IMG/VR virus record: IMGVR_UViG_3300027782_000047
Coordinates: 1 to 64,000 of that record
Direction: 5' to 3' (one strand)
Source: a virus
DNA length: 64,000 nt
Made by a program: the position numbers and the translations under genes
Part shown: in pieces, positions 7,136 through 22,567 of the stretch
How positions within the stretch are numbered: position 1 is the first letter of the stretch
Layout: each line of letters begins with the position of its first letter
Notes under the pieces: generated by a model
Databases searched by the model: none
What the model was told of the DNA's origin: nothing
The model's input: the letters and a program-made list of their open reading frames with translations, nothing else

Positions 7136-8025
7136 GCAAAAAACTAAAGCAACAAGGATGGAAAGTCATCATCCTTGACATAAAAGAACCCACACATTCT
7201 TATGTGGATTCATTTTATTGTGGTGACATTCGGCGAAAGTATTTCCTAGAAAGTATTTTTCAAAATCATTTTGTGGATGTTGTATTCCATCTCGCTGGTC
7301 GGATTGAAGTTGGTGAATCAGTAAAAGATCCTACCGAATTTTGGGAAGTCAATGTTGGCGGAACAGTCTCAGTTTTAAATGCGATGAAAAGAAATGGCGT
7401 GAATACAATCATCTTTTCTTCAACTGCGGGTGTCTATTGGTCAGGTGCAATACAAATACCAGAAGATGAATGCACCACAAGCAACAATCCATACAGTAAT
7501 AGTAAAATGTCCTGTGAATATGCTATTGAAGATTCTGGTATGAATTATGTAATTTTTAGGTATTTCAATCTGGCTGGTGCTGATCCTGACGGAGAAATGG
7601 GTGAAAGCCATGAGCCAGAAACGCATCTAATTCCCAGAATTCTACAAAATCTAAATACGGTTGAAGTGTATGGAAATGACTATGACACACCAGATGGAAC
7701 ATGCGTTAGAGATTATGTCCACGTTTGTGATGTTGTTGATGCACACTTAGAAGCGGTAAAATATCTAGACAATTATGGCGAATCTGGAGTTTTTAATCTA
7801 GGTTCAGGAGTTGGTTATAGTGTTCTTGATGTTATAAAAACAGTTGAAAAAGTAAGCAGTAAAAAAGTAAAATATAACATAGTGCCAAGGAGAGAAGGCG
7901 ATCCAAGTCATTTGGTCGCTGATATCACCAAAGCAAAAACCATTTTGAATTTTAATCCAAAACATGATATATCATCCATCATCAAGTCGGCCTATGAGTG
8001 GGAAGAGATTAGGTCAAACACCTGA
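7060..8025 (+). CDS. galE: UDP-glucose 4-epimerase
   Basis: TGGSGYLGSH, FSSTA, YSNSK, RYFNLAGA, ETHLIP, DGTCVRDYVHV. Confidence 0.95.
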   Translation: MEKEQVNANRTALITGGSGYLGSHLSKKLKQQGWKVIILDIKEPTHSYVDSFYCGDIRRKYFLESIFQNHFVDVVFHLAGRIEVGESVKDPTEFWEVNVGGTVSVLNAMKRNGVNTIIFSSTAGVYWSGAIQIPEDECTTSNNPYSNSKMSCEYAIEDSGMNYVIFRYFNLAGADPDGEMGESHEPETHLIPRILQNLNTVEVYGNDYDTPDGTCVRDYVHVCDVVDAHLEAVKYLDNYGESGVFNLGSGVGYSVLDVIKTVEKVSSKKVKYNIVPRREGDPSHLVADITKAKTILNFNPKHDISSIIKSAYEWEEIRSNT

Positions 8026-8578
8026 AGACATACCATTCAACGTTCAAGATAAGTTTGACAATGTATTCCTTGACAATCATATCTTTTTCTTAAGTGGTGA
8101 AATAAATGAAGAAAACATTCTCAAAGCAACACAATGGTTAGTCTATGAGAATGCATACAATGATCCAGAAAAACTTTTACAGTTGTATATCAATTCTACC
8201 GGCGGTGATTTGTATCAAGCACTTGGTTTAATTGATATGATGCGTATTAGTAAAAACAGAATCCGAACAATCGGCGTTGGTGCTGTTATGTCGGCTGCTT
8301 TTCTAATATTTGCATCTGGCGAAAAAGGCGAAAGATTAATTTCCAAAAATTGTAGTTTGATGTGTCACCAGTATTCTGACACCTACGAAGGAAAGCACCA
8401 CGATTTAAAGTCATTCACAAAAGAGGCTGAATTGACTAATCAAAGAATGTTGAATATACTTCAAGAGGCTACGGGCATGAGCGCACGTAATGTTAAGTCC
8501 AAACTTTTATCACCTAGCGATGTTTGGTTGACAGCCGATGAAGTTATTAAACTGGGTGTAGCAGACCGCATTCTTTAA
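7994..8578 (+). CDS. clpP: ClpP-family serine protease subunit
   Basis: LYINSTGG; catalytic Ser in VMSAAF, His in MCHQ, Asp in DVWLTADE; GVADRI. Confidence 0.88.
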   Translation: MSGKRLGQTPEDIPFNVQDKFDNVFLDNHIFFLSGEINEENILKATQWLVYENAYNDPEKLLQLYINSTGGDLYQALGLIDMMRISKNRIRTIGVGAVMSAAFLIFASGEKGERLISKNCSLMCHQYSDTYEGKHHDLKSFTKEAELTNQRMLNILQEATGMSARNVKSKLLSPSDVWLTADEVIKLGVADRIL

Positions 8579-13063: not shown

Positions 13064-13816
13064 ATGGCAAGAAAAGCAAATACAAAAATTAGACTTGTTG
13101 ATGAATCTGATGTGCAAACAAAACCAACGAATGCACTAAAAATCAGAATAGATGATTTAAAGACTTTTGACCCACTAACAAACAATCAAAAATTATTTTT
13201 TGATGCATATAAGAGAGGCGATTATTTTGTAGCATTACACGGTGTAGCAGGAACAGGTAAAACATTTTGTGCGTTATACAAAGCACTAGAAGAAGTTTTA
13301 GATAAGAGTAATCCATTTCATAAAATTATTATTGTGCGTTCGGCGGTACAATCAAGAGAGATGGGTCATTTGCCTGGTGACGTTGCAGAGAAGATGGAAA
13401 TCTATCAGCAACCATATCAACAAATTTGCCACACTTTGTTTGGTCGCAAAGATGCGTATCAAAGACTTGAAGAACAAGGATACATTGAATTTATTTCAAC
13501 ATCATTCATCCGTGGTATGTCATTTGATGATGCAATTATTATCGTTGATGAAATGCAAAATTTGACGTTTGAAGAAATTGATACCGTTATGACCCGTGTT
13601 GGTTATCGCTCAAAAATTGTATGGTGTGGTGATTATCGCCAAACAGACTTGAACAAAAAGAAAAATGATATGAGTGGTATTTTAAAATTCTTTGATATTG
13701 CAATGCACATGAATGCATTCACTAGAATTGAATTTACCGCAGATGACATTGTTCGGTCATCACTTGTGAAAGATTACATCCTTGCTAAAATGCAACATGA
13801 GGATTCAACAAATTAA
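13064..13816 (+). CDS. phoH: PhoH-like ATPase
   Basis: GVAGTGKT, MGHLPG, FIRGMSF, IVDEMQN, GDYRQTD. Confidence 0.93.
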   Translation: MARKANTKIRLVDESDVQTKPTNALKIRIDDLKTFDPLTNNQKLFFDAYKRGDYFVALHGVAGTGKTFCALYKALEEVLDKSNPFHKIIIVRSAVQSREMGHLPGDVAEKMEIYQQPYQQICHTLFGRKDAYQRLEEQGYIEFISTSFIRGMSFDDAIIIVDEMQNLTFEEIDTVMTRVGYRSKIVWCGDYRQTDLNKKKNDMSGILKFFDIAMHMNAFTRIEFTADDIVRSSLVKDYILAKMQHEDSTN

Positions 13817-13819
13817 ATT

Positions 13820-14488
13820 ATGTTTACGTATTGCCCACCCAAGAAACTAGAAGACTTAAAATCAGAAACACTAGAGAATGGAAGATTTTATGTAACGCCA
13901 GATGGTAAAAGATTACCATCGGTAACAACCGTCTTGGGTGCAATGGGCAAGAAAGCTATCTATGAATGGCGACAACGTGTTGGTGCAGAGGAAGCAAATC
14001 GTATTTCACGGATTGCTTCTGGTCGTGGTACACGTATGCATACGCTATGCGAAAAGTATTTGAACAATCAAGAGTTGGGCAAACCAATGCCTGATGCGCT
14101 GGAATTATTTAAAAAGGTACAACCATATCTAAATAAAATCAACAACATTCAGTATCAAGAATGTGCATTGTGGTCAACAAAACTTGGCATGGCTGGGCGT
14201 GTAGATTGTATTGCGGAATATGATGGTGTTCTTTCTGTCATTGATTTTAAAACATCCAGCAGAGTGAAAACTGCGGAAGATATTCCTGCATATTTTGCTC
14301 AATGTACCGCTTATGCATTGATGTATGAAGAATTGATTGGTGTAAGAATTGACCAAATAGTTGTTATCATGGCTGTACAGGAAGATAACCCAATCATCTT
14401 TATTGAACCAATGAGAAAACATATAAATACTTTACTAGAGTACATTAGTTTTTATCGTGAAAAAAACAATTATTACCTGACAAACTAG
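13820..14488 (+). CDS. PD-(D/E)xK exonuclease (Cas4-like/exonuclease A)
   Basis: LPSVTTVL, RGTRMH, AGRVDCI, IDFKTS, QCTAYA. Confidence 0.88.
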   Translation: MFTYCPPKKLEDLKSETLENGRFYVTPDGKRLPSVTTVLGAMGKKAIYEWRQRVGAEEANRISRIASGRGTRMHTLCEKYLNNQELGKPMPDALELFKKVQPYLNKINNIQYQECALWSTKLGMAGRVDCIAEYDGVLSVIDFKTSSRVKTAEDIPAYFAQCTAYALMYEELIGVRIDQIVVIMAVQEDNPIIFIEPMRKHINTLLEYISFYREKNNYYLTN

Positions 14489-14505
14489 TTTTGTTGTGTT
14501 ATAAT
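14477..14505 (+). promoter_or_regulatory. promoter for tmRNA (additional late TATAAATA at 14422-14429)
   Basis: CTGACA-17-TATAAT with TG extension. Confidence 0.65.
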
Positions 14506-14509
14506 TAGT

Positions 14510-14805
14510 GTTATTGCTGTATGAAGCAAAGAGAAAAGTGTTCTGGACGGGGGTGCGAATCCCCCCACCTCCACCAGAAGTGCATGTATTAGATGAAAGA
14601 AACCATTTTATGGGCTCTAATGGGTGTGCTTCTGATGGGGGTGACCTAGATTCGACAGGGCAACAAGTACATGCGTGGACAGCACGGTAGGCGATGACCG
14701 TAAATCAAGCAAAAAAGTAAACGCAAACGACTCACGTTTCGAATTGGCAGCCTAAACGCTGACTAGGGTTTCGGTAGGTTTCCTCGTAACAGAATAACCT
14801 ACCAA
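14510..14805 (+). ncRNA. ssrA: circularly permuted (two-piece) tmRNA, tag ANDSRFELAA
   Basis: The acceptor piece ends ...GACGGGGGTGCGAATCCCCCCACCTCCACCA (14576), before the coding piece starting GGGGGTGACCTAGATTCGAC (14637). Tag ORF is 14723-14755. The intervening segment is hairpin-closed (CAGAAGTGCAT/GTGTGCTTCTG). Confidence 0.9.
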
Positions 14806-14827
14806 TTTATTAACAAGGAGTTTTATT

Positions 14828-15364
14828 TTGAAGAAAATAGCAATCGCAAGTTTAATTGCAATCGCAACTGCCGCGCAAGCCGGTGGTTTTGTTTCGTATG
14901 GTGTTGACCAAGTTACTGACCGTGTAAGTAACAAACAGAGTATCGCACAGTATGTCCGTGCTGGTACTTCATTAGGTGGTTTGAATCTTGGATTACAAAA
15001 TCGTAATGCTCGTACCAATGACAACCAATCTATGTTCAATAGTTTGGAACTTACCGCAGGTAAAACAGTTTTTGGTATCAACCCATTCGTTGGCGTTGGT
15101 TTTGATAATGGCGGTGATGGCGCAAAGCCATATGAGTATGGTCTAGTTGGCGCAAACGCTGGTGTTAAAGTAGGTCCTGGTTATGCCATGGCTGGTGTTA
15201 AGACCCGTGTAAATTGGAACAGCGCAAATCCAAAACAATCTGTAGCCTTTGTTAGCTATGACATGCCAGTCATCAGCAAAGTATCTGTTGGTTTGGGTGT
15301 TAGCCAAAGCTATCAAGACATTCAGGATCGTGCAGTTGGACTTACAGTTTCTGTAGGATTCTAA
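14828..15364 (+). CDS. outer-membrane beta-barrel (porin-like) protein
   Basis: AAGGAG SD, TTG start, signal peptide ending AQA, amphipathic strands, C-terminal Phe. Confidence 0.8.
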   Translation: MKKIAIASLIAIATAAQAGGFVSYGVDQVTDRVSNKQSIAQYVRAGTSLGGLNLGLQNRNARTNDNQSMFNSLELTAGKTVFGINPFVGVGFDNGGDGAKPYEYGLVGANAGVKVGPGYAMAGVKTRVNWNSANPKQSVAFVSYDMPVISKVSVGLGVSQSYQDIQDRAVGLTVSVGF

Positions 15365-17248: not shown

Positions 17249-18199
17249 ATGATGAAAAAACTTTTAGTAACCTTATTAACTGCAACTGCTATGGCTGTTC
17301 AAGCCTGGACTCCCACGAAGCCTATTGTAGTTGTTTTGCCTAATTCACCTGGTGCAGGTAATGAAATTGCATTTAGAATTTTGGCTAAACAAGTGGAAGA
17401 AAAAACTGGCGCAAACTTTGTTTTTGATTATCGCCCAGGTGCTGATGGTACAGTGGCTATGAATCACTTTAATACACTACAAGCGGATGGTCACCACGTG
17501 GCTGTTCCTGGTTGTCAAAGTACATATGTAACGTCTGAGATATGGTATGCACACAATACAAAATTCAATGCTATGGATTTTGTACCAGTCACTAACATAG
17601 GCAAAAGTCCTTTAGGTTTTTATGCAAGAGCATCATCTAATATTGATACACCAGAAAAACTAATTGCTGAAATTAAGTCTGGACAAAAACAAATGAACTT
17701 TGCTGTAGGCGGCGCAGGGCACAAATTAGCTGTGGAGTATATGATATCTACAATTCAACCTGCAATCAATAATGTGCAATCTATAATGTATAAAGGTCCA
17801 GCGCAAGCTATGAATGATGTTGTGTCTGGGCATGTTGAGTTTGGCGTATTTCCTATAGCTGTGGGTGCGCCATTGATAAAGTCTGGCAAAATCAAATTGA
17901 TTGGAATTGCTGGAGAACAATCTATGCCCGGTCTAGAAAAAGCCAAGCTGATGAAAGATTATGTTCGTAATTTAAATGTGTATGCTTGTTGGAACTTAAT
18001 TTTGCCAAAAAACACTCCACAAGATATTCAAGACTGGTATCGTAATGCATTTATTCCTGCTTTAAATTCAAAAGAAACAAAATCATCCTATGATGAACAA
18101 TTTATCTTCATCAGTAAAAATGAACAAACTCCACAAGGAGTACATGCGACTATGCATAGACTGCGTGAACAATGGCAACCATTCGCAAGAAAAAACTAA
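17249..18199 (+). CDS. Bug/TctC tripartite tricarboxylate transporter substrate-binding protein
   Basis: Signal peptide; WTPTKPI..PNSPGAG, RPGADG, DFVPV, YKGPAQAMNDVVSGHV, PKNTP. Confidence 0.88.
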   Translation: MMKKLLVTLLTATAMAVQAWTPTKPIVVVLPNSPGAGNEIAFRILAKQVEEKTGANFVFDYRPGADGTVAMNHFNTLQADGHHVAVPGCQSTYVTSEIWYAHNTKFNAMDFVPVTNIGKSPLGFYARASSNIDTPEKLIAEIKSGQKQMNFAVGGAGHKLAVEYMISTIQPAINNVQSIMYKGPAQAMNDVVSGHVEFGVFPIAVGAPLIKSGKIKLIGIAGEQSMPGLEKAKLMKDYVRNLNVYACWNLILPKNTPQDIQDWYRNAFIPALNSKETKSSYDEQFIFISKNEQTPQGVHATMHRLREQWQPFARKN

Positions 18200-21188: not shown

Positions 21189-21407
21189 ATGAACAATAAC
21201 TTAATTACGGTATGCATCTCAGCAACAATAGTTTGTTGTACGTTTATTGTAAGTATTTTCATGTATAATATAAACGATAGAAACAATATGGCAAAAAACA
21301 TTGAAGCGGCTATTGCCAAAGGTGTTGATCCAGTTTCTGTTAAGTGTGCATATGAAACAAATATGAATGCAATCTGTATAACTTACGCAGCCACAACTAA
21401 AAAATGA
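21189..21407 (+). CDS. small membrane protein
   Basis: MNNNLITVCISATIV..., GVDPVSVKCAY. Confidence 0.75.
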   Translation: MNNNLITVCISATIVCCTFIVSIFMYNINDRNNMAKNIEAAIAKGVDPVSVKCAYETNMNAICITYAATTKK

Positions 21408-22567
21408 CAAGTGAAGTAGATAGAATTTTTAGAGAATTGAAACAATCCGCATCGCAAATTGGTGGTGATGCCCCAGTAAAATACCGTGTTTCACGGAGAC
21501 GCGGTAGAAAGAAACGCAGTTTAAACTCTTGGACTTATGACGCAATGGATATGAATATGAATGAAATGAAAAGCGGTGCGAACGATAAATTTTTTGTCGG
21601 AGCATCAGATTACGCTGACTGGTTGCACTTGCAATTACTTGATTCGCGGACAGAAAAGAAAATGTCCACTTTCAATTCTGATTTGAAGATGCACGGCAAT
21701 CGTAAAAAATGGCAAGACTTTATCAATGAAGAATTTGATGGTGACTACATCATTCAATATACAGATTCTTCTGGACTTATTGTTACAGAAGGTTTGAATT
21801 TCATTCGTTATGATGTGAATTCCAATTCTGTCTCAACACATACCTATGGTGATAAAATCTTTATTGAAAATGTTGAAGATATTTTTCTAAAGCATTTTGA
21901 TGAAGTTACCTCATACATTGAGTGGGTGTACGGTGCAAATGGTGATAGCGTGAATGTTCCTTTGAATGCCGAGCGTTTGCCTGTTGATGAAATGTATCCG
22001 TTCCTCAAAGAACCATTGACTGACTATTATGACCGTTATCTGGAATCTAACGCAAACATTCTTTTGTTGATTGGACCACCAGGCACTGGCAAGACTACTT
22101 TCATTCGTGGTCTCCTTGCACACAGTAACTCCTCAGCGATTGTGACATATGATGCCGCAATTTTGGAGAAAGACTATTTGTTTGCACGTTTCATTGAAGA
22201 TGAAACTGGCGTGATGGTACTTGAAGATTCCGACAACTTCCTGAAAGCACGGAGTGATGGTAACACCATGATGCATCGTTTTCTAAACGTTGGCGATGGT
22301 CTTGTTACCACAAAAGGTAAGAAGTTGATTTTCTCAACTAACTTGCCAAGTATCCGCGACATTGATCCTGCGTTGATTCGCCCAGGTCGTTGTTTTGATA
22401 TTGTTTCTTTTGATACATTGAAACAAAAAGAAGCCGAAGCATTGGCTAAGAAAATCGGTGTTAAGTTGGATGGTAAGCGTGAAAGCTGGACTATCGCAGA
22501 AGTGTTCAACAAACAAATTGAAGAAAAGAATACCCGCTCTGTGGGTAGCAAAATGGGTTTCGTTTAA
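21404..22567 (+). CDS. AAA-family ATPase
   Basis: GPPGTGKT, VLEDSD, IDPALIRPGR; true start may be downstream. Confidence 0.88.
   Translation: MTSEVDRIFRELKQSASQIGGDAPVKYRVSRRRGRKKRSLNSWTYDAMDMNMNEMKSGANDKFFVGASDYADWLHLQLLDSRTEKKMSTFNSDLKMHGNRKKWQDFINEEFDGDYIIQYTDSSGLIVTEGLNFIRYDVNSNSVSTHTYGDKIFIENVEDIFLKHFDEVTSYIEWVYGANGDSVNVPLNAERLPVDEMYPFLKEPLTDYYDRYLESNANILLLIGPPGTGKTTFIRGLLAHSNSSAIVTYDAAILEKDYLFARFIEDETGVMVLEDSDNFLKARSDGNTMMHRFLNVGDGLVTTKGKKLIFSTNLPSIRDIDPALIRPGRCFDIVSFDTLKQKEAEALAKKIGVKLDGKRESWTIAEVFNKQIEEKNTRSVGSKMGFV

Follow-up and report, generated by a model that had tools for sequence, protein, structure and literature searches.

The DNA analysed here, hereafter the window, is the first 64 kb (64,000 nucleotides) of a 108,667-bp virus record of IMG/VR (IMGVR_UViG_3300027782_000047), with an estimated completeness of 62%, and the element in question is a circularly permuted, two-piece transfer-messenger RNA (tmRNA, ssrA) gene extending from 14515 to 14809 on the + strand. 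ARAGORN detected nine RNA genes in the window, eight tRNAs and one permuted tmRNA, the latter at 14484–14846 (+) and with a tag frame encoding Ala-Asn-Asp-Ser-Arg-Phe-Glu-Leu-Ala-Ala, followed by a stop codon. The same gene was found by two Rfam models, tmRNA_permuted (RF04321; 14515–14755, 142.8 bits against a gathering score of 47) and beta_tmRNA (RF01850; 14463–14809, 135.5 bits against a gathering score of 84, E = 3e-41), the second being the top-scoring model of its clan for the phage tmRNA. The three results are concordant, and they bear out an earlier note, made from the letters alone, which had read at 14510–14805 a permuted two-piece tmRNA with exactly this tag peptide, and a T-arm/CCA half ahead of the 5′ half with a 60-nt hairpin-closed segment between them; the coordinates and the fold agree with this description. 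In the permuted order, the acceptor piece, with the T-arm and ending in CCA, lies upstream of the piece that holds the 5′ strand of the acceptor stem and the tag frame. The parts of the gene are the following:

About 14515–14576, + strand: acceptor piece (3′ tRNA-like half), from ARAGORN, Rfam and the alignment
14515–14520 and 14539–14545, + strand: 5′ strands of P2, in the acceptor piece
14549–14565, + strand: T-arm with a 5-bp T-stem and a 7-nt loop, in the acceptor piece
14566–14572, + strand: 3′ strand of the acceptor stem, pairing with 14637–14643 in seven pairs
14573, + strand: discriminator A
14574–14576, + strand: encoded CCA
14577–14636, + strand: intervening segment of 60 nt, stem-closed and presumably removed on maturation
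14637–14809, + strand: coding piece, from ARAGORN, Rfam and the alignment
14637–14643, + strand: 5′ strand of the acceptor stem, its third pair a G·U (the G3·U70 wobble, alanine identity pair)
14656–14662 and 14679–14684, + strand: 3′ strands of P2, in the coding piece
14686–14699, + strand: small hairpin, in the coding piece
14723–14755, + strand: tag frame, with resume codon GCA and stop codon TAA
14773–14803, + strand: 3′ hairpin with an invariant loop, in the coding piece

Both the structure and the peptide are under selection. A degenerate pattern of the T-arm and acceptor strand matched at least 120 IMG/VR contigs; with the window and the window's own copy added to these 120 loci, ARAGORN called a tmRNA in at least 103 sequences, about 85 of them permuted, and the closest among the matches listed are 76–93% identical to the tmRNA of the window. 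On an alignment of the window's tmRNA with 22 related viral tmRNAs (23 sequences), RNAalifold predicted 56 pairs, 32 of which show compensatory changes. With a structure of 49 pairs, 95.8% of the cells were paired, against 44–52% when the 3′ partners were slid by 1–3 columns; double-sided changes were seen in 31 of the 49 pairs, against 8–13 after sliding, and the covariation score was 0.447, against at most 0.10, with none of 500 shuffles attaining the observed values. The P2 helix contributes double changes in five of six pairs of P2a and in four of seven pairs of P2c, and the nested hairpins that flank the tag frame (14686–14699 and 14773–14803) covary as well, only nested pairing having been modelled. 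The acceptor stem is invariant except in one sequence, and the G3·U70 wobble is present in 22 of the 23. As for the tag frame, it always has ten sense codons; positions 1–3 and 6–10 hold the same or a similar residue despite many synonymous changes, and positions 4 and 5 vary freely. Residues kept through synonymous changes are the signature of a peptide which is translated and selected.

Upstream of the gene, two promoter elements had been proposed:

14477–14505, + strand: sigma-70-type promoter of the tmRNA gene, with the −35 at 14477–14482 and an extended −10 at 14500–14505
14422–14429, + strand: T4 late-type octamer, a weak candidate late promoter within the 3′ end of the exonuclease gene

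The first matches the consensus at 11 of 12 positions, with a 17-nt spacer and TG before the −10, and a similar −35/−10 pair is found upstream of most related phage tmRNA genes. The octamer is indeed present, as the earlier note had it, but it carries little weight, since the window holds three copies against 6.1 expected by chance, and we discarded it as a meaningful signal. In two relatives (L115 and L038) a late-type motif lies directly before the tmRNA gene in place of the sigma-70 promoter. Taken together, the covariation of the structure, the selected tag and the recurrent −35/−10 pairs make it very likely, judging from sequence comparison, that the tmRNA gene is functional.

The intervening segment deserves a separate description. 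The 60 nt of the window form a nearly continuous hairpin of 10 + 7 bp (−20.7 kcal/mol, z = −3.5, none of 200 shuffles as stable), which begins one base past the CCA and ends four bases (UGAU) ahead of the first G of the coding piece. Throughout the viral clade this segment measures 45–175 nt, is always closed after the CCA by a covarying stem of 9–15 bp and nearly always ends in the same four-base leader. The hairpin of the window was also found in L324 and L275, and the latter gave the most direct comparison: the acceptor and coding pieces of L275 (11411–11774) and L271 (12564–13038) are 99% and 97% identical, and L275 has the 60-nt hairpin of the window where L271 has an unrelated segment of 171 nt. 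Since near-identical backbones hold unrelated segments, the intervening content is exchangeable. The constant arrangement of CCA, stem, four-base leader ending in U and next RNA suggests a shared processing route, possibly with RNase P acting at the leader and an endonuclease at the stem.

Some of these segments carry genes. Segments of 138–175 nt, such as those of L047, L059 and L082, hold a ribosome-binding site and an open reading frame (ORF) of 41–52 codons that ends with its stop codon in the four-base leader. Two families of these nested ORFs have homologs down to 51–66% protein identity, some within the segments of diverged tmRNAs, some just ahead of a tmRNA and some free-standing behind a late-type motif. 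The family of L047:4640–4795 (L326–L359) is helical, of about 50 residues, and keeps its length down to 51% identity; upstream examples are L357:601–741 (tmRNA at 750–1099) and L342:601–744 (tmRNA at 731–1157), and these small proteins may act together with the tmRNA. The family of L059:9669–9818 (L360–L378) has 50 residues and 64–100% identity, is nested in tmRNAs with four different tags and occurs as a free-standing gene, too. No homolog of either family was found in the window, whose own segment is an ORF-less hairpin. As contents of intervening segments, the paper on the tmRNA database mentions only a tRNA gene and a repetitive element, both unique cases (PMC11915505).

We consider it probable that the locus is a functional phage ssrA gene, permuted, in two pieces and of the betaproteobacterial structural type, which is run through host factors. 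No SmpB gene was found on this contig, where the earlier note had advised to look for smpB, nor in BUCT-ZZ01, a cultured isolate, or any of four related phages whose genomes are complete; the RNA must therefore rely on the SmpB of the host, in addition to its alanyl-tRNA synthetase, EF-Tu and RNase P. The following course of events can be envisaged. The host RNA polymerase would transcribe the gene early from the near-consensus sigma-70 promoter, giving a single precursor made of acceptor piece, 60-nt hairpin and coding piece. Host tRNA-processing enzymes would excise the hairpin, RNase P cutting before G14637, behind the leader ending in U, and a 3′ end-maker trimming to the CCA at 14576, so that the two pieces would be held together by the 7-bp acceptor stem and the P2 helices. 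The host alanyl-tRNA synthetase would charge the RNA through the G3·U70 pair, and host SmpB and EF-Tu would take the charged RNA to ribosomes halted on broken mRNAs. Translation would resume at GCA 14723, adding the ten-residue tag that ends in Leu-Ala-Ala; the stop codon would free the ribosome, and the tagged fragment would be degraded by host ClpXP. The likely benefit for the phage would be that ribosome rescue is kept going during infection, as host transcription shuts down and cut mRNAs accumulate.

Several observations weigh against this interpretation. The middle of P2 is non-canonical, and the pairing that the Rfam beta model expects there is not formed; the terminal terminator hairpin of that model is absent. 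The misfits in P2 and the missing terminator hairpin account for the score of 135 bits on the beta model, on which a canonical cellular gene of Rhodocyclaceae reaches 245. Moreover, the T-loop (14554–14560; columns 48–54 of alignment A1) has a G at the position of the nearly universal tRNA U55, the G being shared by 13 of the 23 clade members, the others having the usual U. [quoted passage not shown] The sequence of another relative diverges right after the exonuclease. What is left in L277 is an orphan coding piece, with the truncated exonuclease gene joined to the nested ORF; either the tmRNA function was lost in nature, or the deletion is an artefact of assembly.

The patchiness among close relatives is also what is often seen for defence and counter-defence genes, and it brings in another selective reason for the same molecular mechanism, namely that the tmRNA and the phage tRNAs mainly rescue ribosomes stalled by the mRNA- or tRNA-cutting nucleases of abortive infection. 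The genome does carry a tRNA array, and the promoter of the tmRNA gene appears to be of the early type. However, no defence system or target was identified, patchiness fits any accessory gene, and the sequence does not separate counter-defence from a general maintenance of translation. Such a role is possible but, in our opinion, unlikely.

A further question is whether the phage handles the tagged proteins by itself. The earlier note had pointed to a ClpP at 7994 and possibly an AAA ATPase at 21404 as parts of a proteolysis arm that the phage would bring with the tmRNA:

7964–8578, + strand: ClpP-family serine peptidase that probably starts at 7994; it precedes the tmRNA by 5.9 kb on the same strand
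21404–22567, + strand: AAA ATPase with a classical AAA domain, in a PHROG family of unknown function

Both ORFs exist. The 204-residue product of the first matches Pfam CLP_protease (PF00574) with 115 bits, and its Ser-His-Asp triad aligns to that of solved ClpP structures. However, it scored about 103 bits against the two best ClpP subfamily models, whose cut-offs are 228–249, and 65–83 bits against equivalog models with cut-offs of 251–361 (for TIGR00493, 83 against 309), remaining under every NCBIfam ClpP cut-off and under that of the ClpP-related head-maturation model. Its first 34 residues show no similarity to ClpP, in which an N-terminal axial-loop region engages ClpX or ClpA, and most alignments to solved ClpP chains, the best ones included, start near residue 31–36 of the ORF. 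The possibility that it is the prohead protease was rejected, as a separate gp21-type gene lies elsewhere on the contig; the family signature and the triad are what it shares with ClpP and with ClpP-like prohead proteases. No AAA_2 match, the type of ClpX and ClpA, was found on the 108.7-kb contig, and a host ATPase is still a possible partner. The AAA ATPase at 21404 was rejected as the partner: it has no ClpX-type domain and does not co-occur, its homolog being present in one of five complete or near-complete relatives and missing from three that have both the tmRNA and the ClpP-like gene.

The neighbourhood of the two genes is an argument for a tag-and-destroy pathway run by the phage, in which the tmRNA would work with the phage ClpP-family peptidase, and perhaps with a phage ATPase, and the Glu would send tagged proteins towards the phage protease or keep them from a host protease. 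In addition to the window, where the genes lie on one strand, they are near each other in related loci. In nine same-clade loci the ClpP-like gene is 1.1–2.6 kb from the tmRNA (in eight of these 1.1–2.2 kb downstream on the same strand), with proteins 38–42% identical in eight and 27% in L104; in nine others, which are more similar to the window, the distance is 4.5–8.4 kb and the ClpP-like gene is upstream. Both genes are present in BUCT-ZZ01 and in two complete relatives (G405 and G407), G406 has a tmRNA and only a weak ClpP match, and G430, 96% complete, has no match above cut-off to either. Jumbo contigs of 220–380 kb, G408 (L058), G433 (L309) and G412/G418/G420 (L102, L107, L033), carry a permuted tmRNA and a ClpP; the jumbo-phage ClpP is cell-like (252–262 bits), and two of these phages have tags ending in Glu-Leu-Ala-Ala. 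The intact triad and the separate prohead protease agree with the pathway as well.

On the other hand, the stretch from the ClpP-like gene to PhoH and the exonuclease is a conserved block, in which the ClpP-like gene is a fixed member and the tmRNA occurs in only about half of the cases, and close relatives retain the ClpP-like gene where the tmRNA has been deleted or replaced. Since the block is conserved with or without the tmRNA, the nearness of the two genes can be explained by shared descent. No ClpP was found in a tmRNA phage that is 87% complete, and the two genes are 20–90 kb apart in BUCT-ZZ01 and in the jumbo phages; in a search of published phages with the ClpP-like protein, no Pelagibacter or Methylophilales phage name appeared among the matches listed or the main organism counts. 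A gp21-based set of related genomes intended for a two-by-two test of tmRNA and ClpP had 77 of its 80 loci on short contigs, and thus allowed no proper test of association. With the unalignable N-terminus, the scores below cut-off and the want of a ClpX-type ATPase and of a co-occurring AAA gene, the proteolysis arm of the earlier note is not supported in the form proposed, and we regard a phage-run pathway as distinctly unlikely. Its strongest version, a single phage-controlled tag-and-destroy route in which Phe-Glu-Leu-Ala-Ala tags shift proteins between host and phage proteases, seems quite improbable; if true, the phage could strip stalled host proteins for amino acids and spare its own.

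The Glu itself is real. The nearest backbone relatives have Ala at the fourth-last position of the tag, from which the window differs by one base; a pattern search returned 17 viral contigs with tags ending in Phe-Glu-Leu-Ala-Ala, one of them, from another sample, with a tmRNA 99.5% identical to that of the window, and in two contigs the tag is identical to the window's while the tmRNAs are just 82% identical. The same ending is found on the long tags of a separate jumbo-phage clade. This recurrence across samples and lineages argues that the residue is selected and is no assembly error. Nor is it bound to the presence of a ClpP-like gene close by: the 17.8-kb contig of one of the 82% relatives lacks such a gene, which also counts against the pathway considered above. 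In E. coli, the fourth-last tag position contributes to recognition by ClpA and is not known to contribute to recognition by ClpX. Flynn and co-workers reportedly defined, in 2001, the tag positions that are read by ClpX, ClpA and SspB. In the tag of the window, the terminal Leu-Ala-Ala needed by ClpX is intact. SspB is bound by the N-terminal part of the tag and ClpX is engaged by the terminal Ala-Leu-Ala-Ala (PMC8512704). Of the earlier remark that the Glu may alter the specificity of adaptor or protease, the residue and its recurrence are observed, and an effect on the choice of protease or adaptor is conceivable.

Such an effect is central to the idea that the phage RNA competes with the host tmRNA and alters the fate of tagged proteins, rather than the capacity for rescue; for instance, with Glu as its fourth-last residue, the tag might be recognised less well by one of the host proteases. 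The persistence of Glu between tmRNAs only 82% identical and its recurrence in the jumbo clade would fit, and a truncated tmRNA-like RNA of phage DS6A has been reported to inhibit the host tmRNA (PMC11915505). However, the nearest relatives have an ordinary Ala on nearly the same backbone, the terminal Leu-Ala-Ala is preserved, and the gene is complete and not a truncated inhibitor, so that we find a decoy or re-tagging role very improbable.

The origin of the gene was approached from the cellular side. A pattern scan of bacterial genomes, which allowed an intervening segment of only 15–45 nt and was thus a poor sample of cellular relatives, gave 44 loci that resemble the phage gene solely in the forced T-arm region. 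By BLAST against 401 Burkholderiales genomes, the best matches were 74% identical over about 130 nt and proved to be permuted tmRNAs in genomes of about 2 Mb; viral contigs, as seen above, reach 99.5%. The contrast between the two values indicates a distinct viral clade of beta type and no recent capture from a host. That the gene might be an inert passenger, a host fragment left at an integration site or a decaying gene, is hardly credible: tmRNA genes are common integration sites of prophages (PMC9004378, PMC11915505), some matches in the viral collection are proviruses and one relative has a deletion, but both pieces are complete, structure and tag are selected across a large clade known from viral contigs only, the phage is T4-like and of lytic type, and an integration-site relic was rejected on the Burkholderiales comparison and the covariation. 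The beta-type RNA and a Bug/TctC-family gene (17249–18199) hint at a betaproteobacterium as a candidate host; against this, a cyanobacterium is the host of the cultured phage that is closest when the ClpP-like gene is compared.

Two-piece tmRNAs of phages have already been published. In the work on the OM43 phage Melnitz, 53 were found in 18,146 phage genomes, 50 of these aquatic, and 17 of 47 related contigs had one (PMC9004378); the tmRNA database lists 79 phage sequences (PMC11915505). Like Melnitz and the pelagimyophages (PMC9004378), this phage is a T4-like myophage with a permuted ssrA directly behind an early-type promoter, the tmRNA being accessory and no phage smpB being reported. The tmRNA of Melnitz groups with those of Alphaproteobacteria and is followed by a glutamine riboswitch, whereas this gene fits the beta model, no riboswitch was found in the window with Rfam, and it further differs from that of Melnitz in its long, stem-closed intervening segment and in the fourth-last residue of its tag, a Glu. 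With the cellular beta-type two-piece tmRNAs (RF01850, e.g., Methyloversatilis) it shares gene order, acceptor stem, T-arm, P2, resume context, a ten-residue tag of the Ala-Asn-Asp...Leu-Ala-Ala type and the 3′ hairpin with its conserved loop; the cellular genes score about 245 bits and have an unmodelled intervening segment of about 28 nt, whereas the phage gene scores 135 bits and has 60 nt with a covarying closing stem. The cultured Synechococcus phage BUCT-ZZ01 (ON615601, Kyanoviridae) has a permuted tmRNA, which scores 111.9 bits, and a ClpP-like gene with 43% identity to that of the window, and it shows the same order of PhoH, exonuclease-sized ORF and ClpP-like gene, but its tmRNA is 41 kb from the ClpP-like gene, its tag has 12 residues and it infects a cyanobacterium.

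The features that set this gene apart are its beta-type viral clade, the Glu of its tag and the conserved neighbourhood. Members of this clade are common on T4-like contigs of uncultured viruses, and published phage genomes have none; the tmRNA region and the surrounding 20 kb gave no DNA match among 50,697 published phage records. The recurrent Glu tag, the divergent ClpP-family peptidase that is repeatedly but not in every case found close by, and the exchangeable slot that in related phages can carry small conserved protein genes offer handles on what a phage gains from a ribosome-rescue RNA.

The tmRNA gene lies in a T4-like virus record, which carries a gp21-type prohead protease, a gp38-like adhesin, PhoH and the PD-(D/E)XK exonuclease, and the order PhoH, exonuclease, tmRNA is repeated in relatives. 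The remaining features are:

300–954, + strand: array of eight tRNA genes (ARAGORN, Rfam), a sign that the phage invests in translation RNAs
13064–13816, + strand: PhoH-like ATPase, conserved neighbour upstream of the tmRNA
13820–14488, + strand: PD-(D/E)XK exonuclease, conserved neighbour directly upstream of the tmRNA
80807–81256 of the contig: gp21-type prohead protease (Pfam PF03420, 107.9 bits)

On the other side, inspection of the local sequence revealed no terminator directly after the tmRNA gene, and within 25 nt the next gene begins with its ribosome-binding site and its start codon at 14828, so that read-through from the tmRNA into this gene is likely; a terminator-like hairpin (14866–14888) was found inside it. 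The gene (14828–15364) encodes a protein of 178 residues with a clear signal peptide and without any match in Pfam, PHROGs or NCBIfam, is kept after the tmRNA in the closest relatives at 93–95% identity and may be co-transcribed with the tmRNA.

Some further observations were made during the searches. Bacterial genomes of Herbaspirillum and Duganella (L127, L142, L145–L147, L150, L163, L165) and of Oxalobacteraceae and relatives (L123, L134, L135, L152, L156) hold permuted tmRNA-like genes with odd tags, some of eleven residues ending in Tyr-Gly-Thr or similar and others of 23–30 residues; the Herbaspirillum gene scored 102.8 bits on the beta model. These may be second, non-canonical tmRNAs, or lie on mobile elements. 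A contig of a Verrucomicrobiales metagenome-assembled genome (L149) has the same size as the viral contig L037 (22,067 bp each) and the same tmRNA tag, and several other matches in metagenome-assembled genomes of odd phyla may likewise be misbinned phage contigs. The record of BUCT-ZZ01 has no annotation, or only the label hypothetical, for its tmRNA and its ClpP-like gene, and about 1 kb from its permuted tmRNA ARAGORN detected a tRNA with anticodon CTA (L266:2875–2950; amber-reading, labelled Pyl), which could be a suppressor tRNA in a cultured cyanophage.

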